Of a stretch of 62,881 bases of DNA, positions 3,746 through 58,715 are shown one piece after another. Position 1 is the first letter of the stretch; the number at the start of each line of letters is the position of its first letter. The position numbers were made by a program, and so were the translations under genes. Below the pieces are notes generated by a model. That model saw only the letters and a list, made by a program, of their open reading frames with translations, did not search any database and had not been told where the DNA came from. Origin of the DNA: Nostoc linckia z4 (lineage in GTDB: Bacteria; Cyanobacteriota; Cyanobacteriia; Cyanobacteriales; Nostocaceae); the NCBI RefSeq assembly GCF_002608075.1, contig NZ_LAHA01000035.1, forward strand, positions 14,453 through 77,333. The letters run 5' to 3'.

Positions 3746-3830
3746 ATTCTTCTTCATTTTCCCATCTCAAACCTAGCGAACCAGCAACCGCCGAAATTAA
3801 TCCGATCGCTTACTCATCTTTGTTTCTGTC

Positions 3831-14528: not shown

Positions 14529-14593
14529 TAAGTGATATCAGGTTCGGTTAAAGACCCGTAGTTAGGACTGATATCATGTCCGCATAATTAGTT

Positions 14594-15322
14594 ATGATTC
14601 CCAGGAGCATTTTGAGAATGCAAGTTACAGTTGAACAACTCAAGCAAATACCACTGCTTTCTGGGCTGGAACTACAACAGCTTTTGGCATTACAAGCTCA
14701 TGCGATGGTGAAGCAATATTTCCCAGGAGAAATCATTTTACATGAGGGTGACCCTTTGCCTGGTCAACTTTTTGCCGTTCTAGGTGGCAGAATTGAAATC
14801 AAAAAAATAGCAGCTACGGGCAAAGAAACGATTCTGCGAACACTACCAGCCGGAGAAATATTTGCTGCAACGGCGCTGTTAGAAAATGGCTTTGCACCAG
14901 CAACGGTAGTAGCACAGCAAAACTGCAAAATTCTGATGCTGGAGCGTACTGCTTTACTAGCACTGATTCACCATACTCCAGAAGTGGCTTTGCGGATTAT
15001 TGCAGTTTTGACAGAGCGTCTCCAGCATCTACATCAAACGGTGCATGGATTAGTTTCAGAACGCGCAATTGTGCGTTTAGCGCAATACCTGAAGTTCTCA
15101 GCACTTACAGAAGGAACGGAAGTAACTGAACAGGGAGAATTGTTGCGATCGCGTTTACCATATTATCAAATTGCTCGTAGCATTGGAATTACCTATGAAG
15201 AGTGTGTAAGATTGTTCAAGCAAATCCATTCGAGCGTCCGCTATCATCGAGGCGGAAAAATTTTGGTATTAGACCGAGCGAAGTTAGATGCTCTCGCCCA
15301 AGGTGAATATACAATTATTTAA
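14594..15322 (+). CDS. Crp/Fnr-family transcriptional regulator
   Basis: cNMP-binding-like N-terminal domain plus C-terminal HTH (YYQIARSIGITYEECVRLF). Likely start at Met 14618. Confidence 0.75.
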   Translation: MIPRSILRMQVTVEQLKQIPLLSGLELQQLLALQAHAMVKQYFPGEIILHEGDPLPGQLFAVLGGRIEIKKIAATGKETILRTLPAGEIFAATALLENGFAPATVVAQQNCKILMLERTALLALIHHTPEVALRIIAVLTERLQHLHQTVHGLVSERAIVRLAQYLKFSALTEGTEVTEQGELLRSRLPYYQIARSIGITYEECVRLFKQIHSSVRYHRGGKILVLDRAKLDALAQGEYTII

Positions 15323-15409
15323 ATAATTTTTAATTGACTATGTGTGAAAGTAATTCATACTTTCAATCAGCAACGCCTTTATTTTTCATGGTTGACTTAA
15401 TAATTTTAA

Positions 15410-16811
15410 GTTTCAATCCCTAATAGGGATTAAGAAAAATTGTAACTCTGCTTTATGTTGCCTTAACTCGCAGTAAATCAGGTTTCAATCCCTAATAGGG
15501 ATTAAGGAAAATTGTAACGCAGGCATTTATGGGGTTATCACGCCTAAATGATGTTTCAATCCCTAATAGGGATTAAGAAAAATTGTAACCTGTTGTAAAT
15601 ATTCAACGCTATTCTCCTCATAGTTTCAATCCCTAATAGGGATTAAGAAAAATTGTAACCGACTACCCTGTATCTGGAATTTTTATTGACTGGGGTTTCA
15701 ATCCCTAATAGGGATTAAGAAAAATTGTAACTCAGAAGATCCTTTACCACCGATTAATTTGAGTTGGTTTCAATCCCTAATAGGGATTAAGAAAAATTGT
15801 AACTACAACAAGTTTCTGTAAGGTGTCTTGCGTACTCTCGAAGTTTCAATCCCTAATAGGGATTAAGAAAAATTGTAACTCTAACAGTTGGTAGCACTCC
15901 ATACCATCCAGTTTCAATCCCTAATAGGGATTAAGAAAAATTGTAACCAAAGGGAAAGACGCGAGCAATCGCATGGATTCTGTTTCAATCCCTAATAGGG
16001 ATTAAGAAAAATTGTAACATTGGCGATGATTGGGAATATGCCTAGAATTCGTTTCAATCCCTAATAGGGATTAAGAAAAATTGTAACGCAAAGTCTAGCT
16101 GTTCATCTTCTGCAAAGTTTTCGTTTCAATCCCTAATAGGGATTAAGAAAAATTGTAACTTGTTAATCTAGTGGCGTCACGATACTTTTCTCTTGGTTTC
16201 AATCCCTAATAGGGATTAAGAAAAATTGTAACCCGGTCACTGCGGCACTTCCTAAAGTTGCTACACCAGTGTTTCAATCCCTAATAGGGATTAAGAAAAA
16301 TTGTAACTTAAACTACTCTGAGTGTAATAGTCAATATCTAAGTTTCAATCCCTAATAGGGATTAAGAAAAATTGTAACTCCTTGTCGGTTGCTGGGTTTT
16401 CACCTTTTCCTATGTTTCAATCCCTAATAGGGATTAAGAAAAATTGTAACTCTTAGCTGTAGACCCATGCGAGATAGATGAAGAGTTTCAATCCCTAATA
16501 GGGATTAAGAAAAATTGTAACCACCATTTAGCAGAATTTGAATCTCACGAATCACGTTTCAATCCCTAATAGGGATTAAGAAAAATTGTAACAGTTTTAT
16601 TTGGTCTTTTGATAGAGTTATGAACTCAGTTTCAATCCCTAATAGGGATTAAGAAAAATTGTAACAACTTAATTGCTTGTACTACAACTTCTTGAGGTAA
16701 CGTTTCAATCCCTAATAGGGATTAAGAAAAATTGTAACACCAGTCTGAGAAACGTAAGCTTGAGCAACTTCGATGTTTCAATCCCTAATAGGGATTAAGA
16801 AAAATTGTAAC
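15410..16811 (-). CRISPR. CRISPR array, 20 repeats / 19 spacers
   Basis: 37-bp repeat GTTTCAATCCCTAATAGGGATTAAGAAAAATTGTAAC (repeat 2 has one A>G change). Unique spacers of 31-39 bp. The reverse complement ends in ATTGAAAC, hence the minus-strand call. Confidence 0.95.
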
Positions 16812-17717
16812 CGCCAAAGCCTTAGAGCTAATGTGTATTTGGTTTTCAAGGTTCAGTTGCGCGGATGGGTCAATTGTATCACTAGAAAATTTCAATTGAT
16901 TGACACTAAATCGCTGAAATGCTGTCTGGGCATGATGCGCGGGTGATTTTGATTTACTTTTGCCTGAAAGGTTTGTGCTGAGAGGAACACAGAGATTTTT
17001 GTCAAAGGTTGATTTTCTACACCTACCCATCCGCGCATTTGGATAAAAATTTTGTGGCGTTTGCTGGTCTTTTCACTTTTGACTAAGTAAGTCGGTGAAA
17101 TAAAACCAAACTATGCAAAGAAAAGTAAATAAGGCTCAAACTCTTTCTCCCCCTGCTCCCTGCTCCCTGCTCCCAGCAAGAACTGCCTTATCCCAACAAT
17201 AATTATTTACATCGGCCTACTTATAGCCGCCGATCTAACTTTACCTGAGGGTATGCAGTTACATGAAAAGCGATACAAAAGTTTGCAGCGAACAATTCAG
17301 AATATTTATTGCGATCGCCAAGTCATGTTAGATTAAATTTGATTGTTTCGTCAAAACACAAAATTCACAACAAATAACAATCAAAAAACTCCCTCATCTC
17401 CTTCATCCCTCTTATCTCTTCATCCTTGGAATGAAAAAAACGAGCTAAAAGTTAAATTTTTTGAAAAACATGTGCATCAACACACCCATTTTGACGAGGC
17501 TGTATGCCTTACCAGCTAAAAGTTAGAACCCTAATTGCATATCATTGCCAAAGTAAAAGTTAAAAAAATATGAATTGCATTTTTAGCCCAAAAAAAATGA
17601 TATGTTGGATACAGAATTGAATTTCGCACGTATCTGGAGTAGTACGACATATTCTGCTCCAGTTTTTCCCCCAAATTCCTTAGTCTTTGTTGCTTTTGAC
17701 GGGATTTGAGGAGAATT

Positions 17718-18303: not shown

Positions 18304-19749
18304 TTGCGAAATTCAATGACACCACCGTCTACACGACTCGTCACCTCCCCCGCCACGGACTCGACAACAACCCAAGCAAAATCCGGTGGTTGCGGCTGCG
18401 ATAGCAGTACCACCGTGGAAATGGACGAAAAACTCCAAGAACGCATTGCTCAACATCCCTGCTACAGCGAAGACGCCCATCACCACTACGCCCGGATGCA
18501 CGTTGCAGTTGCTCCTGCCTGTAACATTCAATGCAACTATTGTAACCGCAAATATGATTGTGCCAACGAAAGCCGTCCTGGAGTAGTTAGCGAGTTGCTG
18601 ACACCAGAAGAAGCAGCACACAAAACTCTGGTCATTGCAGGCAAGATTCCCCAAATGACAGTTTTGGGAATTGCTGGCCCTGGCGACCCACTAGCCAACC
18701 CAGAAAAGACTTTCCGCACATTTGAGTTAATTGCACAGCAAGCACCAGATATTAAACTTTGTTTATCTACTAACGGTTTAATGCTCTCGGAATACATCGA
18801 TCGCATTAAACAGTTAAATATAGATCACGTGACGATCACCATCAACATGGTAGATCCAGAAATCGGTGCTAAGATTTACCCCTGGGTTCACTACAAACGC
18901 AAACGTTACAGAGGCATCGAAGGGGCGAAACTGCTGCACGAAAAGCAGATGGAAGGATTGGAAGCCTTAAAAAAAGCTGATATCTTGTGTAAAGTCAACT
19001 CCGTAATGATTCCCGGAATTAACGACAAACACTTGATTGAAGTCAATCGCGTCATTCGTGAAAAAGGTGCATTCCTGCATAACATCATGCCCTTGATTTC
19101 TGCACCAGAACACGGCACACACTTTGGTTTAATCGGTCAACGCGGCCCCACACCCAAAGAACTTAAAGAACTCCAAGACAGCTGCTCCGGTAACATGAAA
19201 ATGATGCGTCACTGTCGCCAGTGCCGTGCCGATGCAGTGGGATTATTGGGAGAAGACCGCAGCCAGGAATTTACCAAAGATAAATTCTTGGAAATGGCCC
19301 CAGAATATAACCTAGAAATGCGCCAAGAAGTTCACGAAGGTATTGAGAAATTTAAACAAGAAATTAAAGCAGCCAAAGAAAAGGCACTAGCTGGCAAAAA
19401 AGTTGCCAACAACCCCAAAATCTTAGTTGCAGTAGCAACCAAAGGTGGCGGTTTAGTTAACCAGCACTTCGGTCACGCCAAAGAATTCCAAATTTACGAA
19501 GTAGATGGTAATGAAGTTCGCTTTATCAGTCATCGCAAAATCGATCAATATTGCCAAGGTGGATACGGCGAAGAAGCTTCCTTTGAGCATATTATGAAAG
19601 CGATCGCAGATTGCAAAGCAGTTTTAGTTTCCAAAATTGGTAACTGCCCCAAAGAAAAATTGCAAGAAGCTGGTATACAGACTGTTGAAGCTTACGACGT
19701 AATTGAGAAGGTTGCTTTAGAGTTTTACGAACAATGGAGTAAGGAATAG
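18304..19749 (+). CDS. nifB: FeMo-cofactor biosynthesis radical SAM protein NifB
   Basis: 481 aa. [14 protein letters not shown] radical-SAM motif. C-terminal NifX-like domain. nif synteny. Confidence 0.95.
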
Positions 19750-19811
19750 GGCATGGCGCATGGGTCATGGGGCATAGGGAGATGAGGAAGATGACGGAGT
19801 GTGGAGAGAAT

Positions 19812-19853
19812 AACTCCTAACTCCTAACTCCTAACTCTTAACTCTTAACTCAG
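19812..19853. repeat. tandem heptamers (AACTCCT x3, AACTCTT x2, AACTCAG)
   Basis: Read directly in the nifB-fdxN spacer. STRR-like heptamer array typical of heterocystous cyanobacteria. Confidence 0.8.
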
Positions 19854-19963
19854 CACTCACCATCCCCAATGCCCAATGCCCACTTGCCCTGAGCGAAGCC
19901 GTTCGCGTAGCGTCTCGCAGAGAAGGGATGCCCAATGCCCCATCTTCAAAAAGGAGAATAATC

Positions 19964-20317
19964 ATGGCTTACAAAATCACTAGCCAATGTATTTCCTGTG
20001 ATTTGTGTCTATCTGTATGTCCTACCGGTGCAATCAAAATAGTTGATGGCGATCGCTGGATAGATCCCGAACTTTGCACCAACTGTGTTGGTAGCATTCA
20101 TACAGTGCCTCAGTGTAAAGCTGGTTGTCCCACCTGCGACGGTTGCGTGAAACAGCCTGCTGATTATTGGGAAGGCTGGTTTGCCAATTACAATCGCGTC
20201 CTTGCAAAATTAACTAATAAAGAAGATTACTGGGAACGTTGGTTTAAGTGCTATTCTCAGAAGTACTCTGAACAATTACAAAAACGTCAACCCCGCACAA
20301 TGGGAGTAGAAGCCTAA
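19964..20317 (+). CDS. fdxN: 2x[4Fe-4S] ferredoxin FdxN
   Basis: MAYKITSQCISCDLCLSVCPTGAI...CTNCVG...CKAGCP. AAGGAG lies 8 nt upstream of ATG 19964. The track start at 19928 is probably too early. Uninterrupted. Confidence 0.9.
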   Translation: MAYKITSQCISCDLCLSVCPTGAIKIVDGDRWIDPELCTNCVGSIHTVPQCKAGCPTCDGCVKQPADYWEGWFANYNRVLAKLTNKEDYWERWFKCYSQKYSEQLQKRQPRTMGVEA

Positions 20318-20486
20318 TAAGATAATTCGTAATTCGTAATGCAAAATTCAACTCAAAAATTACGAATTGTTGAAGCTTAAAAGTTAAAGGGTAACGGGTA
20401 TCAGGTTAGAGAATCAAAAGATTGGTAATTATCCCTCATTCCCTATTCCCCACATTGGTAATTATTCTGATATCAAATTACAAACA

Positions 20487-21695
20487 ATGGAAAAGAACTG
20501 CATCTATCTCGATAATAATGCTACTACCAAGGTAGATCCGCAAGTTGTAGAGGCAATGCTGCCTTACCTGACGGACTTTTACGGCAATCCCTCTAGTATG
20601 CATACTTTTGGCGGACAACTTGCCAAAGGCGTGAAAACAGCCAGAGAACAATTAGCAGCCTTATTGGGAGCCGATGAGTCAGAGATTGTCTACACCAGTT
20701 GCGGAACTGAGGGAGATAACGCCGCCATTCGCGCTGCATTGTTAGCGCAACCAGAAAAGCGACACATCATCACCACCCAAGTAGAACATCCAGCAGTACT
20801 GAATGTCTGCAAACAATTAGAAACCCAAGGTTACAACGTTACCTACCTTTCGGTGAACAATCGAGGGCAGTTGGATCTCAATGAACTAGAAGCTTCCTTG
20901 ACTGGTAACACGGCGTTGGTAACAATTATGTACGCCAACAACGAAACCGGTACGGTTTTCCCCATTGAGCAGATTGGGTTACGAGTAAAAGAGCATGGCG
21001 CTCTCTTCCACGTTGATGCGGTGCAAGCAGTGGGTAAAATTCCCATGAATATGAAGAATAGCACCGTAGATATGTTAACTCTGTCCGGTCACAAGCTACA
21101 CGCACCCAAAGGAATTGGTGCTTTGTATGTGCGACGCGGTGTGAGATTCCGTCCTTTGCTGCTTGGCGGACACCAAGAACGCGGACGCAGGGCGGGAACA
21201 GAGAATGTTCCGGGAATTATTGGCTTGGGTAAAGCTGCGGAACTAGAACTGTTACACTTGGAAGAAGCAACAAAAAGAGAAAGAAGGCTGCGCGATCGCC
21301 TAGAACAAACTTTACTCGCCACCATTCCCGATTGTGTAGTTAATGGTGACCCTACGCAGAGATTACCCAACACCACCAATATCGGCTTCAAGTACATTGA
21401 AGGTGAAGCAATTCTACTGTTATTGAACAAATTCGGTATCTGTGCCTCATCTGGTTCTGCCTGTACCTCTGGTTCGCTCGAACCTTCCCACGTCCTCCGG
21501 GCAATGGGCTTACCCTACACCACCTTGCATGGTTCCATCCGCTTCAGCCTTTCTCGCTACACCACAGAAGCTGAAATCGATAAAGTTATCGAAGTCATGC
21601 CCGGTATTGTAGAACGTCTACGCGCCCTCTCACCCTTCAAAAACGACGACGCAGGTTGGCTGCAAGGACAAGAACAAGCACTAGCGCACCGTTAG
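20487..21695 (+). CDS. nifS: cysteine desulfurase NifS
   Basis: 402 aa. PLP-lysine motif SGHKLHAPKG. Active-site SSGSACTSG. Synteny. Confidence 0.95.
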   Translation: MEKNCIYLDNNATTKVDPQVVEAMLPYLTDFYGNPSSMHTFGGQLAKGVKTAREQLAALLGADESEIVYTSCGTEGDNAAIRAALLAQPEKRHIITTQVEHPAVLNVCKQLETQGYNVTYLSVNNRGQLDLNELEASLTGNTALVTIMYANNETGTVFPIEQIGLRVKEHGALFHVDAVQAVGKIPMNMKNSTVDMLTLSGHKLHAPKGIGALYVRRGVRFRPLLLGGHQERGRRAGTENVPGIIGLGKAAELELLHLEEATKRERRLRDRLEQTLLATIPDCVVNGDPTQRLPNTTNIGFKYIEGEAILLLLNKFGICASSGSACTSGSLEPSHVLRAMGLPYTTLHGSIRFSLSRYTTEAEIDKVIEVMPGIVERLRALSPFKNDDAGWLQGQEQALAHR

Positions 21696-21861
21696 GGACT
21701 GGGAAGATGGGGAGATAGGGAGATGGGGAGATGAATTAATAACCAATGCCCCATACCCAATGACGGCAGTTGCTCCACTTGGGGAGACCCCAAGACCGCA
21801 CTGCCTCCCCCATACCAAATCCCTCAATCTAAAATCCAAAATCTAAAATCTAAAATTCACC

Positions 21862-22761
21862 ATGTGGGACTACACAGATAAAGTATTAGAACTGTTTTAC
21901 AATCCCCAAAACCAGGGAGAAATCGAACAAGTCAGCGAACCTGGTGTTAAGGTTGCAACGGGGGAAGTTGGTAGCATTGCTTGTGGTGATGCTCTGAGAT
22001 TGCACCTCAAGGTTGAAGTAGAATCTGATAAGATTCTGGATGCGCGCTTTCAAACCTTTGGCTGCACAAGTGCCATCGCTTCTTCTAGCGCATTAACCGA
22101 AATGGTTAAAGGTTTGACTTTAGATGAAGCTTTGAAAGTGTCCAATAAAGACATTGCAGATTACTTGGGTGGTTTACCAGAAGCTAAAATGCACTGCTCT
22201 GTCATGGGACAAGAAGCTTTAGAAGCGGCAATTTATAATTATCGTGGCATTCCTTTAGATAGCCACGATGACGATGATGAAGGCGCATTAGTTTGTAGCT
22301 GTTTTGGTATTAGCGAATCTAAGATTCGTCGCGTGATTTTAGAAAATAATCTCACTGATGCCGAACAAGTAACAAATTATGTAAAAGCTGGTGGCGGATG
22401 CGGTTCCTGTCTGGCGAATATTGATGATATTATTAAATCAGTAAGACAAGAAGCAACCGCACCGGATCTCAACAATTACGGCGTAAAAGTTGCCACAGAA
22501 ATTGTTACTTCTAAGGAGCGATCGCTAACCAACGTTCAAAAAATCGCCCTCATTCAAAAAGTTCTCGACGAAGAAGTTAGACCCGTTTTAATTGCAGACG
22601 GAGGAGATGTAGAACTGTATGATGTAGAAGGCGATCGCGTGAAAGTAATTTTACAAGGTGCTTGTGGTTCTTGCTCCAGTAGCACAGCAACCTTGAAAAT
22701 TGCGATCGAAGCCAGATTACAAGATCGTGTCAGCAAAAACCTTGTAGTTGAAGCAGTTTAA
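21862..22761 (+). CDS. nifU: Fe-S scaffold protein NifU
   Basis: 299 aa. IscU-like N-terminus (FQTFGCTSAIASS), central 2Fe-2S cysteines (CSCFG, GGGCGSC), C-terminal Nfu CGSC. Confidence 0.95.
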   Translation: MWDYTDKVLELFYNPQNQGEIEQVSEPGVKVATGEVGSIACGDALRLHLKVEVESDKILDARFQTFGCTSAIASSSALTEMVKGLTLDEALKVSNKDIADYLGGLPEAKMHCSVMGQEALEAAIYNYRGIPLDSHDDDDEGALVCSCFGISESKIRRVILENNLTDAEQVTNYVKAGGGCGSCLANIDDIIKSVRQEATAPDLNNYGVKVATEIVTSKERSLTNVQKIALIQKVLDEEVRPVLIADGGDVELYDVEGDRVKVILQGACGSCSSSTATLKIAIEARLQDRVSKNLVVEAV

Positions 22762-23042
22762 AAATTCCTGTAGAGTTTACGTACTCTACAAATACGCCCG
22801 AATAAGCATCAGCTAACAACAAAAAGTAGGATTGGACTTGAATAATTGTCTCCACTCAATGTTTTATACCAATTCGTCAACAGAAAGTTCCAGATTGAAA
22901 TCAGCAAATCTAAATCAAATCTTACTTTCTTCATTACGAATTACGAATTGGTATCAGTCCTACTAACAACAGCATATAGGCGAAAATAGTCAAGCGCCTA
23001 ATTGCAAATTCCGTCATTCAACTCGCTTCAAAGGAGACAAAC

Positions 23043-23399
23043 ATGAGTACATTGTACGAAAAAATTGGCGGAAAACCTACTATTGAGAAAGTAGTAGATG
23101 AGCTTCACAAACGCATTCTTGCAGATAACAGCCTCAAGGGTTTTTTCGCTAACACAGACATGGTAAAGCAACGTAATCATCAGATTACTTTCTTTTCTCA
23201 AATATTTGAAGGGCCAAAGGAATACGGCGGCCGTGCGATGGACAAAACCCACACAGGTATGGCACTACAACAGTCACACTTCGATGCGATCGTCAAACAC
23301 CTGAGTGAATCAATGGCTGTAGCTGGAGTATCCGCAGATGATACAAAAGCTGCACTAGATAAAGTCTCGAACTTGAAACCCGCTATTTTGAACAAATAA
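23043..23399 (+). CDS. glbN: group I truncated haemoglobin (cyanoglobin)
   Basis: 118 aa. MSTLYEKIGG...FEGPKEYGGRAMDKTHTGM...HFDAIVKHL closely resembles Nostoc commune GlbN. Same nifU-glbN-nifH position. Confidence 0.88.
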   Translation: MSTLYEKIGGKPTIEKVVDELHKRILADNSLKGFFANTDMVKQRNHQITFFSQIFEGPKEYGGRAMDKTHTGMALQQSHFDAIVKHLSESMAVAGVSADDTKAALDKVSNLKPAILNK

Positions 23400-23500
23400 T
23401 CGGACTTAAACATCAATTGTTGACGAATATTTAGGTCAATTCCTACTAAGTTTTGGAAGCTGAGACACATGACGACGTATTTGTAAATTGCGTAATCTCT

Positions 23501-23528
23501 TAGTCATTAGTCAAATGACTAATGACTA
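23501..23528 (+). promoter_or_regulatory. perfect 13-bp-stem hairpin TAGTCATTAGTCA-AA-TGACTAATGACTA in the nifH 5' region
   Basis: Read directly, ~270 nt upstream of the nifH ATG. Possible transcript-stabilising or processing structure. Confidence 0.35.
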
Positions 23529-23744
23529 GGACAAAAGACAAATTACCAATAATTATTTAAGCTTACAAGCGTCCGCATTTTTCAGTGGAATTAATCCAAA
23601 ATCCAAAATCTAAAATTGCCTGTCCAAAAGAAAACAAATTTAACGAGGAAGTATATGCAGTTACTTATTTATGTTTTTACTGTGGAGCGATCGCCACCGG
23701 CGATGTTCTACAAACCCTCACAGCCATAGCTCCGACAGGCGTGA

Positions 23745-24692
<948 letters not shown>

Positions 24693-24853: not shown

Positions 24854-26216
24854 ATGACTCCTCCAGAAAATCAAAACATCATCGAAGAAAGAAAAGAACT
24901 AATTAAGGAAGTACTAAGCGCTTATCCCGAAAAAGCAGCTAAAAAACGGGAAAAGCACCTAAACGTATACGAAGAAGGTAAGAGCGATTGCGGCGTTAAA
25001 TCTAACATCAAATCTCTTCCTGGTGTAATGACCGCTCGTGGTTGTGCTTACGCCGGTTCAAAAGGTGTGGTTTGGGGCCCTATTAAGGACATGATCCACA
25101 TCAGCCACGGGCCTGTAGGTTGCGGTTACTGGTCTTGGTCTGGTCGTCGTAACTACTACATTGGTACTACAGGTGTAGACACCTTTGGTACCATGCACTT
25201 CACCTCTGACTTCCAAGAACGGGATATCGTTTTCGGTGGTGACAAAAAACTCACCAAACTCATCCAAGAATTGGAAGTTCTTTTCCCTCTCAACCGTGGT
25301 GTTTCCATTCAATCTGAATGTCCCATCGGTCTAATCGGGGATGACATCGAAGCAGTAGCTCGGAACACATCCAAAGAAATTGGCAAGCCAGTTGTTCCCG
25401 TTCGTTGCGAAGGTTTCCGCGGTGTTTCTCAGTCCTTGGGTCACCACATCGCTAACGACATGGTGCGTGACTGGGTGTTCACCAGAGCCGACAAAGAGAA
25501 AAAAGAAGGCAAATTACAATTCGAGTCTACTCCTTACGACGTAGCAATCATCGGTGACTACAACATCGGTGGTGATGCTTGGGCTAGCCGGATTCTGTTA
25601 GAAGAACTGGGCTTGCGCGTAGTTGCTCAGTGGTCTGGTGATGGTACAATCAACGAAATGTTGATGACACCGAACGTGAAGATGAACTTGATTCACTGCT
25701 ACCGTTCGATGAACTACATCAGCCGTCACATGGAAGAAGCTTATGGTATACCCTGGTTGGAGTACAATTTCTTCGGCCCCACCAAGATTGCTGAATCCTT
25801 ACGGGAAATCGCTTCTAAATTTGACTCCAAGATCCAAGAAAACGCTGAGAAGATCATCGCTAAGTATCAGCCCACAATGGATGCGATCGTTAACAAGTAT
25901 CGCCCCCGTTTGGAAGGTAAGACCGTTGCGATGATGGTTGGTGGTTTGCGTCCTCGCCACGTTGTACCCGCTTTCCAAGATTTGGGTATGAAGATGGTCG
26001 GTACAGGTTATGAGTTCGCTCACAACGACGACTACAAACGTACCACCCACTACATCGAAAACGGCACCATCGTTTACGATGACGTAACTGCTTATGAATT
26101 CGAGGAATTTGTAAAAGCACTCAAGCCAGACTTAATTGCTTCTGGTGTGAAAGAGAAGTACGTCTTCCAAAAGATGGGTCTACCCTTCCGTCAAATGCAC
26201 TCCTGGGATTACTCCG
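24854..26216 (+). CDS. nifD: nitrogenase MoFe protein alpha chain NifD, 5' segment (interrupted by element)
   Basis: [31 protein letters not shown]. NifD similarity stops at the 11-bp repeat. The track ORF continues 31 unrelated codons to 26308. Confidence 0.95.
26206..26216 (+). repeat. left 11-bp recombination core GGATTACTCCG
   Basis: Identical to 58705-58715. Flanking bases differ on both sides. Confidence 0.9.
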
Positions 26217-26591
26217 AACCTAGCGATGCCTTCTCTTTCAGAGACGCTACCGCGAACGGCGGGCTTCGCCAACGCACTTACAAGTCAATTAAATCAATAT
26301 TTTTTTAGCTATCGGAGAAAAAAGAGCCTATTTCTAGCCTAAATCCAAATTACAAGCTTATTCATTAACAATCTGTTTTAATACTTCAGACAGTATAACT
26401 CTTATGTAATCTGGTTTTTAGATTTGAAAAGCATTTTGCTCCAAGAAAAACTGTTAAATAAAAGACTATTTTAGATGACGATTTTTTAGATTAAATGGCT
26501 AAATTTTTTTGTGTAGCACAAAGACGCAAATAAGAATGCAAAAATTCTGAATTTTTCTAAAGTGTAAGGTAATACTATATGCTGGTCTAAC

Positions 26592-26924
26592 TTAAACTCG
26601 CAATGCATCACGCATAAAAATCACTAATTTTGGAAGTGCCTGAAAAAATTCCTTTTCGTTATTGAATTGGTGAGTTTCAAGAAAGACATTGTTACTTGTA
26701 GATATTTCAATAATTTCCATTACACAAGCTCCTGACTCCCAAACTGTTACTCTACCAAGATGTAATAAACTCTCAAAATCAAGACACATAGCTGAATTAT
26801 CACTAGGTTGACAGTAGGTCAGCGTGTATTTCAGCTGATAAGCAGCAAAACGTGACTTTAATCCTGATTGAAATCTGTCAAAACCTCGTTCTGAGATTAG
26901 TTTTGTTAGTGGATTGATACTCAT
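26592..26924 (-). CDS. hypothetical protein
   Basis: 110-aa ORF with no recognisable motif. Confidence 0.45.
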   Translation of the reverse strand: MSINPLTKLISERGFDRFQSGLKSRFAAYQLKYTLTYCQPSDNSAMCLDFESLLHLGRVTVWESGACVMEIIEISTSNNVFLETHQFNNEKEFFQALPKLVIFMRDALRV

Positions 26925-27014: not shown

Positions 27015-27677
27015 ATGACAATTTTGATCGTAGAAACTCTATGCTCCGAAGCTGCTATATTTTCAGCAACCGAGTCTTTACATCCAGAACCTTTGCTATA
27101 TGGTGTGACTGATGGTAAGGCTGTCGGGACATACTTGGAACAAAAATTTAGACTTTATCTCAAACAGCGATATGAATTTGTAGAGGGTAATTCTGCAAGC
27201 AGTATTGACTTTCCAGGGTTACTTGTAGATGTGAAGGTAACAAGCATTCGACAACCACAATCATCATGTCCTTTCAAATCTGCACGTCAAAAGATATTTG
27301 GGCTTGGGTATTCGCTGCTGATTTTCGTCTACGATAAAACAGACAATAGTACGAACCGCACAGCAACCCTAAATATTTTGCATACTATTTATGTAAGCGC
27401 CGAAAGAACCGCAGATTTTCAGATGACTCGTGCAATTCGCAATATCATAGCAAACGAAGGTAATAAAGATGATTTAATTGCCTTCATGCTCGATCGCAAT
27501 TTACCCGTTGATGAAATTGAGGCAAGCAACATTGCCGATGAAATTATGAGCAATCCACCGGTACAGGGTTTTCTGACTATTTCCAACGCTTTGCAATGGC
27601 GACTCCAGTATGGAAGAGTAATAGAACGTGCTGGTCAAGAAGATGGTATAATTCCTGTTTACAAAATTAATCAATGA
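27015..27677 (+). CDS. probable type II restriction endonuclease
   Basis: 220 aa. PD-(D/E)xK-like IDFPGLLVDVKVTS. 4-nt ATGA overlap with the downstream methyltransferase. Confidence 0.55.
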   Translation: MTILIVETLCSEAAIFSATESLHPEPLLYGVTDGKAVGTYLEQKFRLYLKQRYEFVEGNSASSIDFPGLLVDVKVTSIRQPQSSCPFKSARQKIFGLGYSLLIFVYDKTDNSTNRTATLNILHTIYVSAERTADFQMTRAIRNIIANEGNKDDLIAFMLDRNLPVDEIEASNIADEIMSNPPVQGFLTISNALQWRLQYGRVIERAGQEDGIIPVYKINQ

Positions 27678-29116
27678 CTCATACTGCACATAAAACAAAG
27701 ATAGAGTACGGAGATTTCCAGACACCATTAGAATTAGCTAATAAAGTATGTAAAAAGCTAGTTGCACTCGGCATAACACCAGATATTATAGTTGAGCCAA
27801 CGTGTGGAGTTGGTAATTTTATTGAAGCAGCTTTAGATTCATTTCAATCAGTAAATAAAATTTTTGGAGTTGAAATCAATCCCGATTATTTAAATCAAGC
27901 TCAAACAAAAGCTAAATTTGTTAATCATAAAAGAATTGAAATTATATATGGAAATTTTTTTAAATTTGATTGGTCATCAATTATAGAAAAATCAAATCAT
28001 CAAATATTAGTAATTGGTAATTTACCTTGGGTAACAAACTCGCAGCAAGGTAGCATTGATGGAAAGAATTTACCAAATAAGAGTAATTTCCAAAACTATT
28101 CTGGTTTAGATGCAATTACAGGTAAGAGTAATTTTGATATATCTGAATGGATGTTAATTCAAGTTGTGCAATGGCTACAAAAGCGTGAAGGTTATCTAGC
28201 GATTTTATGTAAGAGTTCTGTTGCTAGGAAAATATTAACGTATATTAGTTCTCAAAAATTACATCTTGCTTACTGTGCAACTTACAAAATAGATACAAAA
28301 AAATATTTTGATGCTACTGTTGACGCGTGTTTACTGTTATGTAGATTTGAGTCAAATTCCAAAAATTATTTCTGTGATGTATTCAGTAGCCTTGAAACTT
28401 CTAATTATTATCGAATAGGTTATTGGAATAATGTACTTGTCAGAGATATTATTACATTTGAAAAACTACAAAATCTATACGATAAAAAATCAAAAATAAA
28501 ATGGCGCTCTGGTATTAAGCATGATTGCGCCAGTGTGATGGAGTTTCGCAAAATTAACAACACTCTGATTAATGGATTGGGAGAAGCTGTTGGTATTGAA
28601 GAAACATATCTGTTTCCTTTGCTTAAAGGTTCCTATGTTGCTCAAAATAAAACAAAGGTTACTGATAGATATGTTTTAGTAACTCAAAGATTTGTGGGTG
28701 AATCTATCGAACATATTAAAAATTACGCTCCTAAAACTTGGAACTATCTAGAAGCATATTCACAATACCTCGACAAAAGAAAAAGTAAGATTTATCAAAA
28801 TAACCCTCGATTTTCTATTTTTGGTGTAGGTTCGTATACTTTTGCACCTTGGAAAATTGCAATTTGTGGACTTTACAAAAAATTGGACTTTAGATTGATA
28901 GGTAAGATAGAAGAAAAACCTACTGTTTTTGATGATACAGTTTACTTTATTAGCTTTGATGATGAGAAAATTGCATATAAAACTTTTGAACTTTTGACTT
29001 CTTCAATAGCAAAAGAATTTTATTCGTCTCTAATTTTTTGGGATGAAAAGCGCCCAATCAAGTCTAGTATTTTAAATAAATTAAACTTGGCAGCTTTGGC
29101 AGAAGTATTAATTTGA
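27674..29116 (+). CDS. N6-adenine DNA methyltransferase
   Basis: 480 aa. SAM motif I EPTCGVGNFIEAA and motif IV-like VIGNLPWV. AT-rich gene. Confidence 0.75.
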   Translation: MTHTAHKTKIEYGDFQTPLELANKVCKKLVALGITPDIIVEPTCGVGNFIEAALDSFQSVNKIFGVEINPDYLNQAQTKAKFVNHKRIEIIYGNFFKFDWSSIIEKSNHQILVIGNLPWVTNSQQGSIDGKNLPNKSNFQNYSGLDAITGKSNFDISEWMLIQVVQWLQKREGYLAILCKSSVARKILTYISSQKLHLAYCATYKIDTKKYFDATVDACLLLCRFESNSKNYFCDVFSSLETSNYYRIGYWNNVLVRDIITFEKLQNLYDKKSKIKWRSGIKHDCASVMEFRKINNTLINGLGEAVGIEETYLFPLLKGSYVAQNKTKVTDRYVLVTQRFVGESIEHIKNYAPKTWNYLEAYSQYLDKRKSKIYQNNPRFSIFGVGSYTFAPWKIAICGLYKKLDFRLIGKIEEKPTVFDDTVYFISFDDEKIAYKTFELLTSSIAKEFYSSLIFWDEKRPIKSSILNKLNLAALAEVLI

Positions 29117-29240: not shown

Positions 29241-30779
29241 TCACTGCCCGTTAATCCGAATCAAGTCTGTCAAAATATTATCCAAACTGCCGTTAACTTG
29301 AATGCGATCGATTTTCTCTGCAATGCGTTCTAAAACTTCGAGTTCCTTGAGACGCAAAGCTACAGGGTTATCTTCCATCACTTTGGCAGTGTTTAACATA
29401 CTGCGGGTGGCGGCGGTTTCTTCTCTGCGTCTGACTACGTTTGCTTGAGCAGCTTTTTCGGCTTCGACTACTTTGCTCAAGATTGTCTTAATCTCGCCGG
29501 GTAAGATAATATCTTTGACGCCTACAGAATCTACTTCGATTCCATAGTCGGCGGTTTTTTGGCGGATATATTCAGATATGCTTGTGTCAATTGCACCTTT
29601 ATCTTCTAATAAGGCATCTAAGTTGCGTTCGCCGATCGCACCACGCAATGCAAATTGTAATTCTTTGTATAAGAAGCCGGCAATATCTGACAAGCCGCTT
29701 TTTGCTCTCAAGGGATCGAGGATGCGGAAGCCAGCTGTCAAATTTAACCGCAGAGGTACTTTATCCTTAGAAAGGATATCTTGACCTGATACTTCCATGT
29801 TTTGCAGTCTCAAGTCGATGGTTTCGGTTTGAAAGGAGCGTCCAAATAACCACCAAGCGTGTATACCTGGCGATCGCTGTCCTTGAAACTCTTGATTAAT
29901 ATACAGTAGTCCGGTGTGCTGTGCGGGTACTTGGCATGTATGCAAACAGTTGCGACTGAGCAATTTCACTTCTGCCGAACCTTCAACCAACTCAGCAACT
30001 AAGCGAGGCTCTAACTGAGCATCAGTGCTGATGTCGATAATTTCCACCTCAACACCTTGCCAAAACAGCTTGCGACTTGTGGGTGGTAAAATAGAAATCG
30101 CTTTACCTCGATACCGCACAATTGCAACTTGCCAATTCAGTAATTGTACTGTTTGGCAGTAAGCAGCAATAAAATCTGGATGTTTTTCAATTAGAACATC
30201 TTCTAGAGGAAAGTCTGGGTTAGGAACAATTCGGCTAAGAGTCCGTACTGTAACATCCCGATCCACTGACCAAAAAGCATATTCTCCAGGTTCTAGAGGT
30301 CGCACAAAATCATTTTGTACATACAGTAAACCAATCTCATACTCCGAAATTTGGAACTTTTTCACTCCATTCAAGCTGATTTTACGTAGTTGCTGCACAA
30401 AAGAACTAGGCAATTCTAAACTTTCTTCTAAGTTGAAGACATAAGATTCTACCTCAATAAAACCACGCCAAAAAGCTACCAATTGATTTGGTGCAACGCT
30501 TACCCAATTCTGGCCGTAGCGTACTAAAGCGGCTTGGTTGTATGCGGTTCTGATAATCAGTAAATGTTGTTGCAGTTCAGTCTGATGATTTCGCAACAAC
30601 AGCTCCAGGTTTTCAATTTGAGCTTGTGGCTGGTTGAGGTCATAAGTTTTTACTTGCCAATGACGACCAAAATAAGTATGTGTACCAGGCTGTAAAATTT
30701 TCTGGAAGTCGCTGCGGTGATATAAAATACCGATTTCGTTAGGTTTTATATAAAATGTTTTCCACATAGTAATTTGCAT
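29241..30779 (-). CDS. SPFH/band-7 (slipin-like) protein with triplicated N-terminal domain
   Basis: 512 aa. C-terminal SPFH core plus coiled coil (GIEVDSVGVKDIILPGEIKTILSKVVEAEKAAQANV). Three N-terminal repeats (EIGILYHRSDF, EIGLLYVQNDF, HTGLLYINQEF). Confidence 0.8.
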   Translation of the reverse strand: MQITMWKTFYIKPNEIGILYHRSDFQKILQPGTHTYFGRHWQVKTYDLNQPQAQIENLELLLRNHQTELQQHLLIIRTAYNQAALVRYGQNWVSVAPNQLVAFWRGFIEVESYVFNLEESLELPSSFVQQLRKISLNGVKKFQISEYEIGLLYVQNDFVRPLEPGEYAFWSVDRDVTVRTLSRIVPNPDFPLEDVLIEKHPDFIAAYCQTVQLLNWQVAIVRYRGKAISILPPTSRKLFWQGVEVEIIDISTDAQLEPRLVAELVEGSAEVKLLSRNCLHTCQVPAQHTGLLYINQEFQGQRSPGIHAWWLFGRSFQTETIDLRLQNMEVSGQDILSKDKVPLRLNLTAGFRILDPLRAKSGLSDIAGFLYKELQFALRGAIGERNLDALLEDKGAIDTSISEYIRQKTADYGIEVDSVGVKDIILPGEIKTILSKVVEAEKAAQANVVRRREETAATRSMLNTAKVMEDNPVALRLKELEVLERIAEKIDRIQVNGSLDNILTDLIRINGQ

Positions 30780-30916
30780 AGATAATTTGACCAGATTTAA
30801 TCAAAACATTTATAACCTCGCTGGAAACTAAATACCACCTATAATTCTGGAGTTGACAAACCTATAAATAAAGGTTGAAGGATTTGTTTGAGGTTTTGTA
30901 GTATTATATTACATTT

Positions 30917-31287
30917 TACTCTGCCGGCGCAGGTGTTTATAGTTTGGGATGCGGGCAAAAGCTTCTCCAGAACTGGATTAAGATTGCTGTTAGTTTTAAT
31001 AGACGGCTCAAAGGCAATCTAGAAAAACAGAACCGCGCTCAAATATGCCGATCGCTTTGCCAATCTAGAATTTCCGAAGTCAAAGCAGATATAGGAAAAC
31101 GAAGGTACATACTCAAGTTGGGGAGAGATTACAGTTGCGCTGGCTCCTTTACTGTTACGAACACCTGCATGACAGAGTACAAAAAACAAAAAGTTTTTTC
31201 ACTGGGTTTTTTTGAATCGCCCAATACATCTAGCTGTGACACTGCCTTGTCCCTAACAAGGTGCCCGTACCCAGGGCAGGGGTTTTT
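30917..31287 (-). ncRNA. structured non-coding region, module B body (homologue of 32604-32968)
   Basis: Patchy but strong conservation with module A (41-nt block with 1 mismatch, 30950-30990 vs 32634-32674; 31094-31155 vs 32761-32821). Many local hairpins. No conserved ORF. Strand inferred from the tRNA orientation. Confidence 0.5.
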
Positions 31288-31363
31288 TGGCTGAAAGTAT
31301 AGGAATCGAACCTATAATGAATCGGCGATACACCGATCGCTCTACCAAATGAGCTAACTTTCA
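31288..31363 (-). tRNA. tRNA-like cloverleaf with encoded CCA but non-canonical anticodon loop (UGUAUCG)
   Basis: Manual fold: TGAAAGT/ACTTTCA acceptor, GCTC/GAGC D stem, ATCGG/CCGAT anticodon stem, ATAGG-TTCGATT-CCTAT T arm, G-CCA. G at position 33 and C at position 37, so probably non-decoding. Confidence 0.6.
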
Positions 31364-31411
31364 TGGTGAAATAGTTGGAAGCATTAAGCGGTATACGCTA
31401 TTACCAGAGGT

Positions 31412-57049: not shown

Positions 57050-58351
57050 TCAACTTCGCTTATAAACGATTTCCATTTTCAACTTCTCAACCTCTAATCT
57101 CAACTTTTCATTTTCCATTCTCAATTTAGCATTTTCTTCCCTAATTAACTCAACTTCATTCCTCTTACTCAACGCCTGATTCATTGCTAACTTTCGCATA
57201 TCTAGCGAAAACCATCGCTGATAAGTTTGCGTGTGAACTTGGACGCTATGACCTAGATTATCTGCTGCTGCTTTAATTGGAATTCCTAAAATATGCGCTC
57301 GAATTGCCCAAGCGTGGCGTAAATCATAAGGCTTAAAATCTAAGCCGATTTTACGAAACCACCAACTGACTCGTTGTGTTAATGCCGTGATTTCTGCATA
57401 ATTAGTATTATCTTTTTTACTAATTGCCGTTGCCAGCATTTCTAAATATTTGGGATTCCTTAAATCAAATTCCTCAATCCATTGTTTATATAAAGGTAAA
57501 GCTTCTCTCTCGCCAGTCTTACAATCTTTATGAACCTTCCAGGTTAAATCCAAATTTTCTTGACTTAACCACCAATCGATGTCAGGATTAATAAAAAGCT
57601 CGCGCGGTCGTAAACCGAAAACTGCTAACATTCCATAAGTCCAGCGCCAAAGCTGCCAGCTATCTTGGACATTTTGGTTAACTTGATTGCCTCTGGTATT
57701 TAAGTATTGTTCAAACTTGCCAATCCCCTCAGCTATTTCTGCATCAGTCGGTATATTGCGGGAATTATTCTCTGGCATTTTGGAGTATTTTGATAAATCG
57801 ATTTCGATTTTGAACGTCTGACAAAATACAGCGATCGCTCTTGCTGCATTATACTTAGACCATTCCTTATCGATTCTTTCAATCGCATTTATCAAATTCT
57901 CAGAAGTCGCCAAATCAGCAGGATTAGTAAATCGCTTAGTTCGGGAAATATAATAAAAAAAAGTATGTTCGCTTTTAGTCGTCCGTTTGTGAGTTTTAAA
58001 ATATTCATCTTCAAATTTTTCCAGCAATTCGCCAATTGTTTTACAATCTTTTTTAATTGCCTCATTGCCTAAATATTTTTCATTCCATGCAAAAGTTTTA
58101 CGAGCAATTAACTTTCCTAACTCATAAGCTTCTTCCTCAGCCGTTTTTAACCCATCCAAATTAGCAGGAATATTCAAGCTGAGATTGTATTGCTTTCTAC
58201 CAGTGCCATTTTTATCCTTGTCCCCAGGTTTAATCGGTAACGTAGCGCGTAATTGCAGACTTCCATTAGATTCTCGAATTGTTACCTTAGTCTTTGCAGA
58301 CTTCAAACGCAGATTTACCGTCTCTAATTCCAGTAATACTTTTGATTTCAT
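57050..58351 (-). CDS. xisA: nifD-element site-specific tyrosine recombinase XisA
   Basis: 433 aa. Integrase motifs RPRELF, YDLRHAWAIRA, LGHSVQVHTQTYQRW. N-terminus (NGSLQLRATLP) resembles Anabaena XisA. Located at the inner right border of the element. Confidence 0.9.
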   Translation of the reverse strand: MKSKVLLELETVNLRLKSAKTKVTIRESNGSLQLRATLPIKPGDKDKNGTGRKQYNLSLNIPANLDGLKTAEEEAYELGKLIARKTFAWNEKYLGNEAIKKDCKTIGELLEKFEDEYFKTHKRTTKSEHTFFYYISRTKRFTNPADLATSENLINAIERIDKEWSKYNAARAIAVFCQTFKIEIDLSKYSKMPENNSRNIPTDAEIAEGIGKFEQYLNTRGNQVNQNVQDSWQLWRWTYGMLAVFGLRPRELFINPDIDWWLSQENLDLTWKVHKDCKTGEREALPLYKQWIEEFDLRNPKYLEMLATAISKKDNTNYAEITALTQRVSWWFRKIGLDFKPYDLRHAWAIRAHILGIPIKAAADNLGHSVQVHTQTYQRWFSLDMRKLAMNQALSKRNEVELIREENAKLRMENEKLRLEVEKLKMEIVYKRS

Positions 58352-58704: not shown

Positions 58705-58715
58705 GGATTACTCCG
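58705..58715 (+). repeat. right 11-bp recombination core GGATTACTCCG
   Basis: Identical to 26206-26216. Confidence 0.9.

Follow-up and report, generated by a model that had tools for sequence, protein, structure and literature searches.

The first retron to be discovered, Mx162, belongs to type XIII, a type whose biological role is, to our knowledge, still unsettled. In the type XIII operons described by Mestre et al. 2020 (PMC7736814), the reverse transcriptase (RT) is accompanied by WGR/HEAT-ARM and SWIM genes. A second described system is the Anabaena gene pair alr0739-alr0740, whose induction under stress is already known from published work (PMC10272220, PMC9938897). A stretch of 62,881 nucleotides (nt) from Nostoc linckia z4 (contig NZ_LAHA01000035.1, positions 14,453 to 77,333 of the forward strand), referred to below as the window, carries relatives of both on its minus strand: an RT derived from type XIII retron RTs and, downstream of it, a gene for an SPFH protein that appears to be the orthologue of alr0740.

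A first-pass annotation of the window presented the SPFH protein as a candidate effector of the RT. Comparison with other loci leads to a different view. The linkage between RT and SPFH is real but one-sided, and what constantly accompanies SPFH is the RNA module upstream of it. The reading favoured here, considered probable though well short of secure, takes a stress-regulated SPFH gene and an RNA cluster as the constant parts of the locus, with the RT as an optional resident and SPFH as no dedicated retron effector. Because the SPFH gene and its RNA cluster are old and vertically inherited, with the RT residing there and often lost, SPFH is not filed as a retron effector.

The SPFH gene and its constant RNA partner

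On the minus strand the locus runs from an open reading frame (ORF) of 230 codons through RNA module A (33247-32603), the RT, RNA module B (31490-30918) and the SPFH gene, with the remaining coordinates given in Table 1. This layout bears out the first-pass annotation on two points. SPFH directly follows the RT on the same strand, and each of the two genes is preceded by its own copy of the module, the copies being about 600 nt long and 75-91% identical block by block.

The SPFH ORF is intact, and its product combines a Band_7 domain (Pfam, E 5e-29) with a following coiled-coil helix, the arrangement that places it in the SPFH/Band 7 superfamily, as first annotated. Ahead of this core lie internal repeats. 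Residues 1-135 and 136-278 are 29% identical over 119 residues (E 2e-12), and each also matches the SPFH domain over its first ~55 residues (E ~3e-7). The N-terminal region had been described as triplicated, which is correct in that the repeats are genuine but not in their number: the third motif, HTGLLYINQEF at about residue 289, already belongs to the Band_7 domain, as its N-terminal beta part, so that there are two extra repeats and not three. A full third repeat is found in cyanobacterial variants of 640-675 amino acids. When the N-terminal 282 residues were searched against 1.8 billion cluster representatives, the 337 relatives recovered were 370-924 amino acids long and contained one to seven matched stretches.

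The structure prediction suggested for these repeats was run, and they come out structured. In the AlphaFold model (AF2; mean pLDDT 82, ~90 across the repeats) each repeat of ~135 residues is predicted to consist of two five-stranded beta units plus helices, and the repeats are followed by the alpha/beta SPFH fold and the long helix. The protein differs from stomatin, HflK/C, prohibitin, QmcA and flotillin in having no membrane anchor and in the two or three extra N-terminal partial-SPFH repeats of its family. No hydrophobic or membrane segment is present in it, the maximum 19-residue hydropathy (KD19) being 1.21. PADLOC and NCBIfam scans of the protein give no defence-family match, and no NfeD or FtsH gene occurs in any gene neighbourhood listed around SPFH loci.

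The SPFH protein is 80-96% identical to homologues in Nostocales, Chroococcidiopsis, Oscillatoria, Microcoleus, Gloeothece and Leptolyngbyaceae, and identity this high across cyanobacterial orders is the pattern of a core gene. The best 120 of 7211 significant homologues are 65-96% identical and come from Nostocales, Chroococcidiopsidales, Oscillatoriales and unicellular forms. The Anabaena PCC 7120 protein is 81% identical to that of the window and almost equal in length (508 and 512 amino acids). At its locus (L002; numbers of this form denote comparison loci) this 508-residue slipin is paired with a 193-residue OmdA/YdeI-like protein, and the pair stands beside the NTRC gene, which we take to be all0737. 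Within Flavobacterium, a one-repeat homologue of 365 amino acids is strongly conserved. In Chamaesiphon (L017, 11111-17038) the SPFH gene that adjoins the RT is seemingly split into pieces or copies with other ORFs between them, and tblastn places SPFH segments at 11171-11554, 14533-15384 and 16871-17038.

The module upstream of SPFH is composed of a ~120-nt 5' element that begins at a TGTGCTA(A/C)AT motif, one to three tRNA-like elements, short hairpins and a core RNA of 270-300 nt. Minimum free energy folds of the 5' part of the modules are uninformative. The three tRNA-like elements of the window are called as tRNAs by both ARAGORN and Rfam, and across loci such elements fall into two or three orthologous slots, the first bounded by GTTTGAT...ATCAAAC and the second by GAAAGT...ACTTTC. 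Their acceptor, D and T arms are kept across 75 distinct copies, 38 of which encode CCA, while the anticodon loops have drifted or become malformed. A genuine tRNA would keep a conserved anticodon, a canonical 7-nt loop, U33 and a purine at position 37 in the orthologous gene, and these elements do not. They display 25 different 'anticodons', among them AAT, ATT, ATG and CTA, which are not expected in bacterial tRNAs, and some have loops of the wrong size. They are therefore tRNA-like structures and not decoding tRNAs, and the label given to them in the first-pass annotation is apt.

The core RNA is closed by a stem of 15 pairs (ACUCUG..UGCAGGUGUU / AACACCUGC..CAGAGU). Covariation was assessed on 45 sequences against 500 shuffles and against slid-partner controls. 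In the alignment 96.2% of cells pair, and compensatory changes occur at 22 of 43 pairs, compared with 9.0 +/- 1.8 in the shuffles (0/500) and 4-12 in the slid controls. Invariant G-U pairs identify the transcribed strand of the core RNA as that of SPFH. At both gathering and permissive thresholds, Rfam 15 contains no family for the module beyond the tRNA model, apart from a 28-bit match to YrlA in the window.

The module accompanies SPFH widely. It lies upstream of the gene at 65-73% DNA identity in Chroococcidiopsis PCC 7203, Gloeothece PCC 7424 and Anabaena PCC 7120, and upstream of SPFH at all genome loci examined. In a scan anchored on SPFH, the core RNA stands just 5' of the gene at almost all of the 56 metagenome loci that have upstream sequence. 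Locus L127 holds two core RNA copies in tandem (3762-4064, 4484-4788) with no RT, and L105 holds two (1345-1632, 4491-4783), both downstream of an RT; the number of modules is thus not tied to the presence of the RT.

A short reverse transcriptase with a one-sided link to SPFH

The window RT matches PADLOC RT_XIII (9.6e-150, profile positions 99-430 of 469) far better than the next model (1e-91), and its translation contains the motifs by which retron-clade RTs are recognized: NAxxH (TNAQPH), VTG (QVTGVVVN) and YADD (RYADDLTF). Its cyanobacterial relatives form two length classes, a long one of ~469 amino acids and a short one of 332-370, to which the window RT belongs. The short class lacks the ~120-residue N-terminal coiled coil of the long class, and the window RT is 55-60% identical to cyanobacterial RTs of the long class. 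The published type XIII operon fits the long class; at comparison locus L014, for example, WGR_XIII (E 0) and SWIM_XIII (2.8e-249) make up a canonical operon. No WGR/HEAT-ARM or SWIM partner is found among the six neighbouring window products scanned, nor is such a gene listed in the neighbourhoods of other short-class RTs. In a neighbour-joining tree 32 of 35 short RTs fall into one all-short clade, and the remaining three look like truncated gene calls. The short-class RTs are a truncated branch of the type XIII retron RTs, essentially of single origin, from which the usual partners have been lost.

A comparison with type XIII retrons themselves (Mx162, Mx65, Ne144, Sa163; PMC7736814) shows a likeness in two respects, the RT clade and the presence of a structured RNA, closed by a terminal stem, immediately 5' of the RT. 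The differences are several. The window RT has neither the ~120-residue N-terminal extension nor a WGR/HEAT-ARM or SWIM partner, its adjacent RNA carries tRNA-like elements, and its neighbour is an SPFH gene that mostly occurs with no RT. The core RNA, which ends 17 nt before the RT ATG, does not resemble the canonical type XIII msr-msd spacer in sequence and has no long msd-type hairpin. In visual alignment, the canonical SWIM-RT spacers contain an unrelated RNA that does have such a hairpin, and an nhmmer search of 80 type XIII RT loci with a core RNA profile gave no match near canonical RTs.

The association of the short RT with SPFH recurs from locus to locus. All 17 short-class RTs examined lie directly upstream of an RNA module and SPFH: those of the window, of L007, L008 and L021 (Nostoc), of L004 and L089 (Chroococcidiopsis/Scytonema), of L087 (Oscillatoria), of L017 (Chamaesiphon) and of nine metagenome loci. 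A second module precedes the RT in Nostoc and Oscillatoria, and its core RNA stops 17-47 nt short of the ATG. The neighbourhood analysis proposed in the first-pass annotation thus extends the link beyond one genome. The converse does not hold. An RT is present at ~9 of ~38 informative metagenome SPFH loci and at one of four genomes examined from the SPFH side, so that roughly three in four SPFH loci lack an RT within 5 kb; Anabaena PCC 7120, Gloeothece PCC 7424 and C. fritschii PCC 9212 have none at the SPFH locus. The two-way co-occurrence of an effector with its RT is therefore seen in one direction only, 17/17 from RT to SPFH and ~9/~38 from SPFH to RT. The annotation had named two observations that would count against its proposal, RT homologues unlinked to SPFH and an SPFH gene living independently of any RT with an NfeD-type partner. 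The short RTs examined are all linked, which goes against the first; SPFH is often free of an RT, as in the second, and no NfeD partner was seen in the neighbourhoods listed.

Closely related strains show how the RT comes and goes. Locus L093, from a Nostoc relative whose SPFH DNA is 93% identical, matches the window along the 230-codon ORF and module A, and the match resumes at SPFH. Missing from L093 is the segment from 32596 to ~30900, which is exactly the RT plus module B (~1.7 kb), with the junction at the core RNA. Direct repeats flanking this unit would make its loss by recombination, or its gain, easy. Across loci the identities of RT and SPFH are 98/96, 71/91, 65/83 and 57-61/81-83%, the RT dropping faster; that the two fall together fits co-inheritance with repeated loss of the RT. 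An RT that is found only at the SPFH locus, in about one quarter of cyanobacterial SPFH loci, and is present or absent among near-identical strains depends on the locus, and SPFH does not depend on the RT.

These observations bear directly on the idea that RT, noncoding RNA and SPFH form a tripartite retron defence system, in which the SPFH effector is restrained by RT-DNA and freed on phage infection. The RT does belong to the retron clade, and an RNA with a closing stem that ends 17-47 nt before the RT ATG is retron-like, although this RNA has neither the sequence similarity to the type XIII msr-msd nor the long msd-type hairpin. Every short-class RT examined adjoins SPFH, the loss of the canonical partners makes a replacement effector plausible, and defence genes do lie close by, a type II restriction-modification (R-M) pair and TriTu in the window and ParE in L004. 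SPFH (80-96%) and the RNA (~70%) are nevertheless kept in most cyanobacteria with no RT at the locus, near-identical strains differ by the RT unit alone, and the orthologue is under TrcR/translation-stress control at a locus that has no RT. Conservation of a core-gene kind is, moreover, unlike that of defence effectors. A tripartite retron is accordingly judged unlikely. The proposal of SPFH as a dedicated retron effector is not supported, in view of its core-gene status, the roughly three quarters of loci with no RT, the L093 deletion or insertion, the RNA module as constant partner and the TrcR regulation of the RT-less orthologue. The accompanying statement that an SPFH protein lies outside the described retron effector classes agrees with the literature searched, in which no link between retrons and SPFH or stomatin proteins was found.

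Regulation and possible role of the locus

Evidence on regulation comes from Anabaena. In a trcR deletion alr0739 and alr0740 are up 72- and 42-fold, TrcR binds the alr0739 promoter, the TrcR consensus TGTAGTAT overlaps -10 boxes, and chloramphenicol induces the pair along with rtcB and the cryptic tRNA operon (PMC10272220). The pair is likewise raised in a culture that contained erythromycin (PMC9938897). In C. fritschii PCC 9212 the transcripts that increased 'dramatically' following a sub-lethal dose of erythromycin were those of an SPFH gene and of a TROVE (Ro60-type) gene (PMC6424891). The Anabaena locus has the same module upstream (L002, 4746-5318) and the same TGTAGTAT between the core RNA and the first gene. 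It differs from the window in having no RT and in having an extra YdeI/OmdA gene between module and SPFH. The two studies of alr0739-alr0740 (PMC10272220, PMC9938897) make no mention of an RNA module, protein repeats or an RT link there.

The window carries a match to the same consensus between core RNA B and the SPFH ATG, in a region that is probably the regulated promoter of SPFH. In almost all SPFH loci (most of L091-L139) the motif follows the core RNA's 3' end at 6-14 nt, so that the core RNA overlaps the upstream part of the SPFH promoter. It occurs twice in L087 (5960-5967, 7698-7705) and in L007 (7995-8002, 9765-9772), where it is also found just before the RT. A promoter and terminator scan of the sequence gives no more sites than in shuffled sequence. 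By its apparent orthology to a shown target and the operator motif at its putative promoter, the window gene fits the TrcR translational-stress regulon.

The relatives of SPFH in Bacteroidota also have an RNA-centred context, which recurs in the three loci examined. The Flavobacterium homologue has tRNA or tRNA-like genes and a sub-threshold YrlA-like element upstream and an RNase T-type exonuclease downstream. In Chryseobacterium sp. Ch-15 (L148, 1-9966) a homologue of 503 amino acids stands amid three RNase T-type genes, an Rnl2-type RNA ligase, a metallophosphatase and a Ro60/TROVE gene, with tRNA-like, YrlA-like and Flavo-1-like elements upstream. Of the Flavo-1 motifs at this locus, that at 9203-9291 is above the Rfam threshold and that at 4719-4818 is below it. 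Two Flavobacterium genomes carry a complete type XIII retron, divergently oriented, beside the tRNA-like/YrlA-like/SPFH locus, as seen from the RT in L072 and from the WGR/DUF6493 protein in L147. Among at least 15 Bacteroidota type XIII RT loci an SPFH homologue lies near one (L072), L147 having been reached from the SPFH side. Since the other Bacteroidota type XIII RT loci have no SPFH, a link to the RT across phyla is suggestive only.

This context invites comparison with two ribonucleoprotein (RNP) systems. The loci of Rsr (Ro60) with Y RNA and of rsr-yrlBA-rtcBA likewise have tRNA-like RNA modules beside a stress-induced protein gene. The likeness extends to the co-regulation of the Anabaena orthologue with RtcB and to the Ro60, Rnl2 ligase and exonuclease genes near the Chryseobacterium homologue. 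The core RNA of 270-300 nt has no counterpart at rsr-yrlBA-rtcBA loci. The major vault protein (MVP) shares with the window protein the order of its parts, a beta-repeat array, an SPFH-like domain and a long helix. Vaults are also alike in their association with small structured RNAs, and a TROVE gene lies near a Bacteroidota homologue. In Foldseek searches with the whole model, MVP is the only solved family that spans the repeats, the SPFH domain and the helix, over 578-689 columns with E values of 1e-13 to 1e-9 but TM-scores of 0.2-0.3.

From these likenesses it could be supposed that SPFH provides the shell or scaffold of an RNP induced by stress. Such a particle would be a small bacterial analogue of vaults or Ro particles, would contain the tRNA-like and core RNAs and could include the RT as an enzyme that is not always present. 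The extent of the MVP alignment and the variation of repeat number from one to seven across the family would suit such a shell, yet the low TM-scores and the lack of any Pfam Vault or MVP_shoulder match in the SPFH protein speak against it, and true bacterial MVP homologues form a different family (10.1101/872010, PMC3762200). The Ro side of the comparison draws on a Ro60/TROVE gene and Y-RNA-like elements in the vicinity of the homologues in Chryseobacterium and Flavobacterium and on the joint induction of TROVE and SPFH genes by erythromycin in C. fritschii, that SPFH gene being of unconfirmed family. It falters on two points: YrlA scores (28 bits in the window, 46 bits in the Flavobacterium locus L147) are far under the Rfam threshold of 69, so that the elements do not qualify as Y RNA of a Ro60 RNP, and the cyanobacterial loci listed contain no TROVE gene and no Rsr gene, TROVE having been seen only near the Chryseobacterium homologue. 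As a description of the window locus, a vault- or Ro-like particle is doubtful and is given only a small chance.

The favoured reading, that of a stress-regulated SPFH and RNA locus with an optional RT, suggests the following sequence of events. SPFH would be transcribed from its own promoter with the TrcR operator, and by virtue of that operator would be switched on under impaired translation, together with the RNA ligase RtcB and other TrcR targets. The RT and all other parts of the locus would most likely be expressed under the same stress. SPFH may form ring or cage oligomers, by analogy with solved SPFH proteins, and may act on the neighbouring RNAs, or together with them, when translation or RNA is damaged. 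What ties the RT to the locus is most likely the module RNA, as template or primer, and possibly SPFH. The RT may in turn copy module RNA into DNA as an added layer of function, possibly an anti-phage one. A more explicit form of this mechanism has SPFH, the tRNA-like RNAs and the core RNA assembling into a stress-induced RNP cage or ring that handles damaged tRNA or ribosomes as a bacterial functional analogue of vaults or Ro particles, with a domesticated type XIII RT copying one of the RNAs into DNA. In this full form it is offered as a long shot.

Several points weigh against the favoured reading. That SPFH binds or acts on the RNAs and that the RT uses them are both things we infer, and the core RNA is dissimilar in sequence to the canonical type XIII msr-msd spacer. 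No TGTAGTAT stands ahead of the window's RT. The two matches to this 8-mer in 62.9 kb equal the chance expectation, so that only the conserved position of the motif gives it weight. The equation with alr0740 is based on the 81% identity, the pairing of alr0739 (YdeI/OmdA) with a slipin and the gene order beside what we take to be all0737, and the membership of the erythromycin-induced C. fritschii gene (UYEDRAFT_02422) in the window SPFH family is unconfirmed. An RT elsewhere in the genome could serve the RT-less loci, as the comparison was one of loci. Finally, a housekeeping gene inside a nifD excision element is odd.

Genomic setting and meaning

The window comes from a heterocyst-forming, Nostoc-type cyanobacterium, and nifB, nifS, nifU and nifH lie at 18304-24692. 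An 11-bp sequence, GGATTACTCCG, marks the break point of the nifD reading frame, and its second copy lies directly past an XisA-like integrase ORF and directly ahead of nifK. These direct repeats and the integrase place the SPFH, RNA and RT locus inside a 32.5-kb nifD excision element. Its cargo includes the SPFH and RNA locus, which is otherwise core, the RT, an R-M system and many further genes. On the downstream side of SPFH are a TriTu immunity-protein gene (26592-26924, minus strand) and the type II R-M pair (27015-27677 and 27674-29116, both plus strand; PADLOC REase_II 1e-132, MTase_II 1e-238). These surroundings look like a defence island.

Such a setting raises the question of whether the adjacency has any function, for tRNA-type genes are common integration sites. 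The tRNA-like genes might be a landing hot spot for mobile and defence genes, the RT among them, with SPFH next to it by chance. The cargo around the locus is indeed variable: L004 has ParE, L087 an IS605 OrfB gene and the window TriTu together with the R-M pair. The entire region is within the nifD element, and in Flavobacterium a complete type XIII retron adjoins the homologous tRNA-SPFH locus, though in divergent orientation. The orientation and position of the RT relative to the module, however, are constant in at least four orders, and the RT forms one clade with a common truncation and was never seen elsewhere. The joint fall of RT and SPFH identities is what co-inheritance predicts, and in L087 and L007 the RT shares the operator motif of SPFH. 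A functionless adjacency is for these reasons considered very improbable, and the RT is better regarded as an optional resident of the stress-regulated locus.

The protein of 193 residues encoded upstream of the RT, which the first-pass annotation had put forward as a second candidate partner, is the shorter form of the 230-codon ORF and does not hold that place. The ORF has zero matches in Pfam, PADLOC and NCBIfam. Nostoc relatives keep it 5' of the module whether they have the RT (L007, L096) or lack it (L093, L097-L099), and it is absent at the RT loci of the non-Nostoc genera examined. It is thus a Nostoc-specific neighbour, independent of the RT. An identity with the 193-residue protein upstream of SPFH in PCC 7120 was considered and rejected, as the two were compared and are unrelated. 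The ORF is flanked by direct and inverted copies of a GC-rich repeat, TTGTGGGATGGG..CCCGTCCGGGCGGG, at 33383-33440 and 34435-34471, which looks like a small dispersed repeat element.

Farther away, the window contains a CRISPR array at 15410-16811 with 21 CRISPR-DR5 repeats, assigned to the minus strand by Rfam; no cas gene is present among the scanned ORFs that adjoin it. The other genes seen are a LanM-type lanthipeptide synthetase (DUF4135 and LANC_like; 6080-9448, plus strand), a patatin-like phospholipase (47552-49222, minus strand) and a STAND/NACHT NTPase with an EAD4 effector-associated domain (54528-56225, minus strand).

Table 1. Features of the SPFH locus and the surrounding nifD element, in window coordinates.
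Feature	Position	Strand	Basis or remark
SPFH ('slipin') protein, 512 amino acids, soluble	29241..30779	minus	intact ORF and Band_7 match
Band_7/SPFH domain (residues 283-454), then long helix (residues 428-468)	29418..29933	minus	
N-terminal repeat 2 (residues 136-278)	29946..30374	minus	alignment and AF2
N-terminal repeat 1 (residues 1-135)	30375..30779	minus	alignment to repeat 2 and AF2 secondary structure
TrcR consensus match TGTAGTAT (ATACTACA on gene strand)	30897..30904	plus	14 nt after core RNA B, 117 nt before SPFH ATG
Core structured RNA, copy B (~260 nt)	30918..31178	minus	alignments and RNAalifold
tRNA-like element B (slot 2, called 'tRNA-Ile(tat)'), encoded CCA	31288..31363	minus	aberrant anticodon loop UGUAUCG
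5' structured element B (~120 nt), starting at promoter-like TGTGCTAAAT motif	31364..31490	minus	16-species alignment
Short-class RT, 350 amino acids, derived from type XIII retron RTs	31534..32586	minus	PADLOC RT_XIII
Core structured RNA, copy A (~280 nt, extra hairpin)	32603..32880	minus	3' end 17 nt before RT ATG
tRNA-like elements A (slot 1, 33046-33121; slot 2, 32969-33044)	32969..33121	minus	CAU 'anticodon' and encoded CCA in both
5' structured element A	33122..33247	minus	block alignments of modules
230-codon ORF (193 codons from second ATG, 33541-34119)	33541..34233	minus	neighbour, judged outside the system
XisA-like integrase ORF	57050..58351	minus	nifK-proximal end of nifD element
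nifD interruption, 32.5-kb excision element	repeats 26206-26216, 58705-58715; also listed 24854-26308, 59138-60673		

In the literature searched, no description was found of the RNA cluster, the repeat architecture, the resident RT lineage or the combination of RT, SPFH and RNA. The comparison corrects a tempting mis-annotation, since adjacency alone is no ground for cataloguing SPFH as a retron effector class. Even with the RT left aside, a conserved cyanobacterial RNA cluster with no Rfam family stands ahead of a gene that responds strongly to translation inhibitors. With the RT, a type XIII lineage that has lost its usual partners is fixed at a translational-stress locus, and the idea of an RT acting on the RNAs of a stress locus under TrcR-type control becomes testable in a tractable organism. 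If the RNP with its recruited RT were to prove true, it would tie the retron clade that has been known for longest, and whose role is still unsettled, to the sensing of translational stress.

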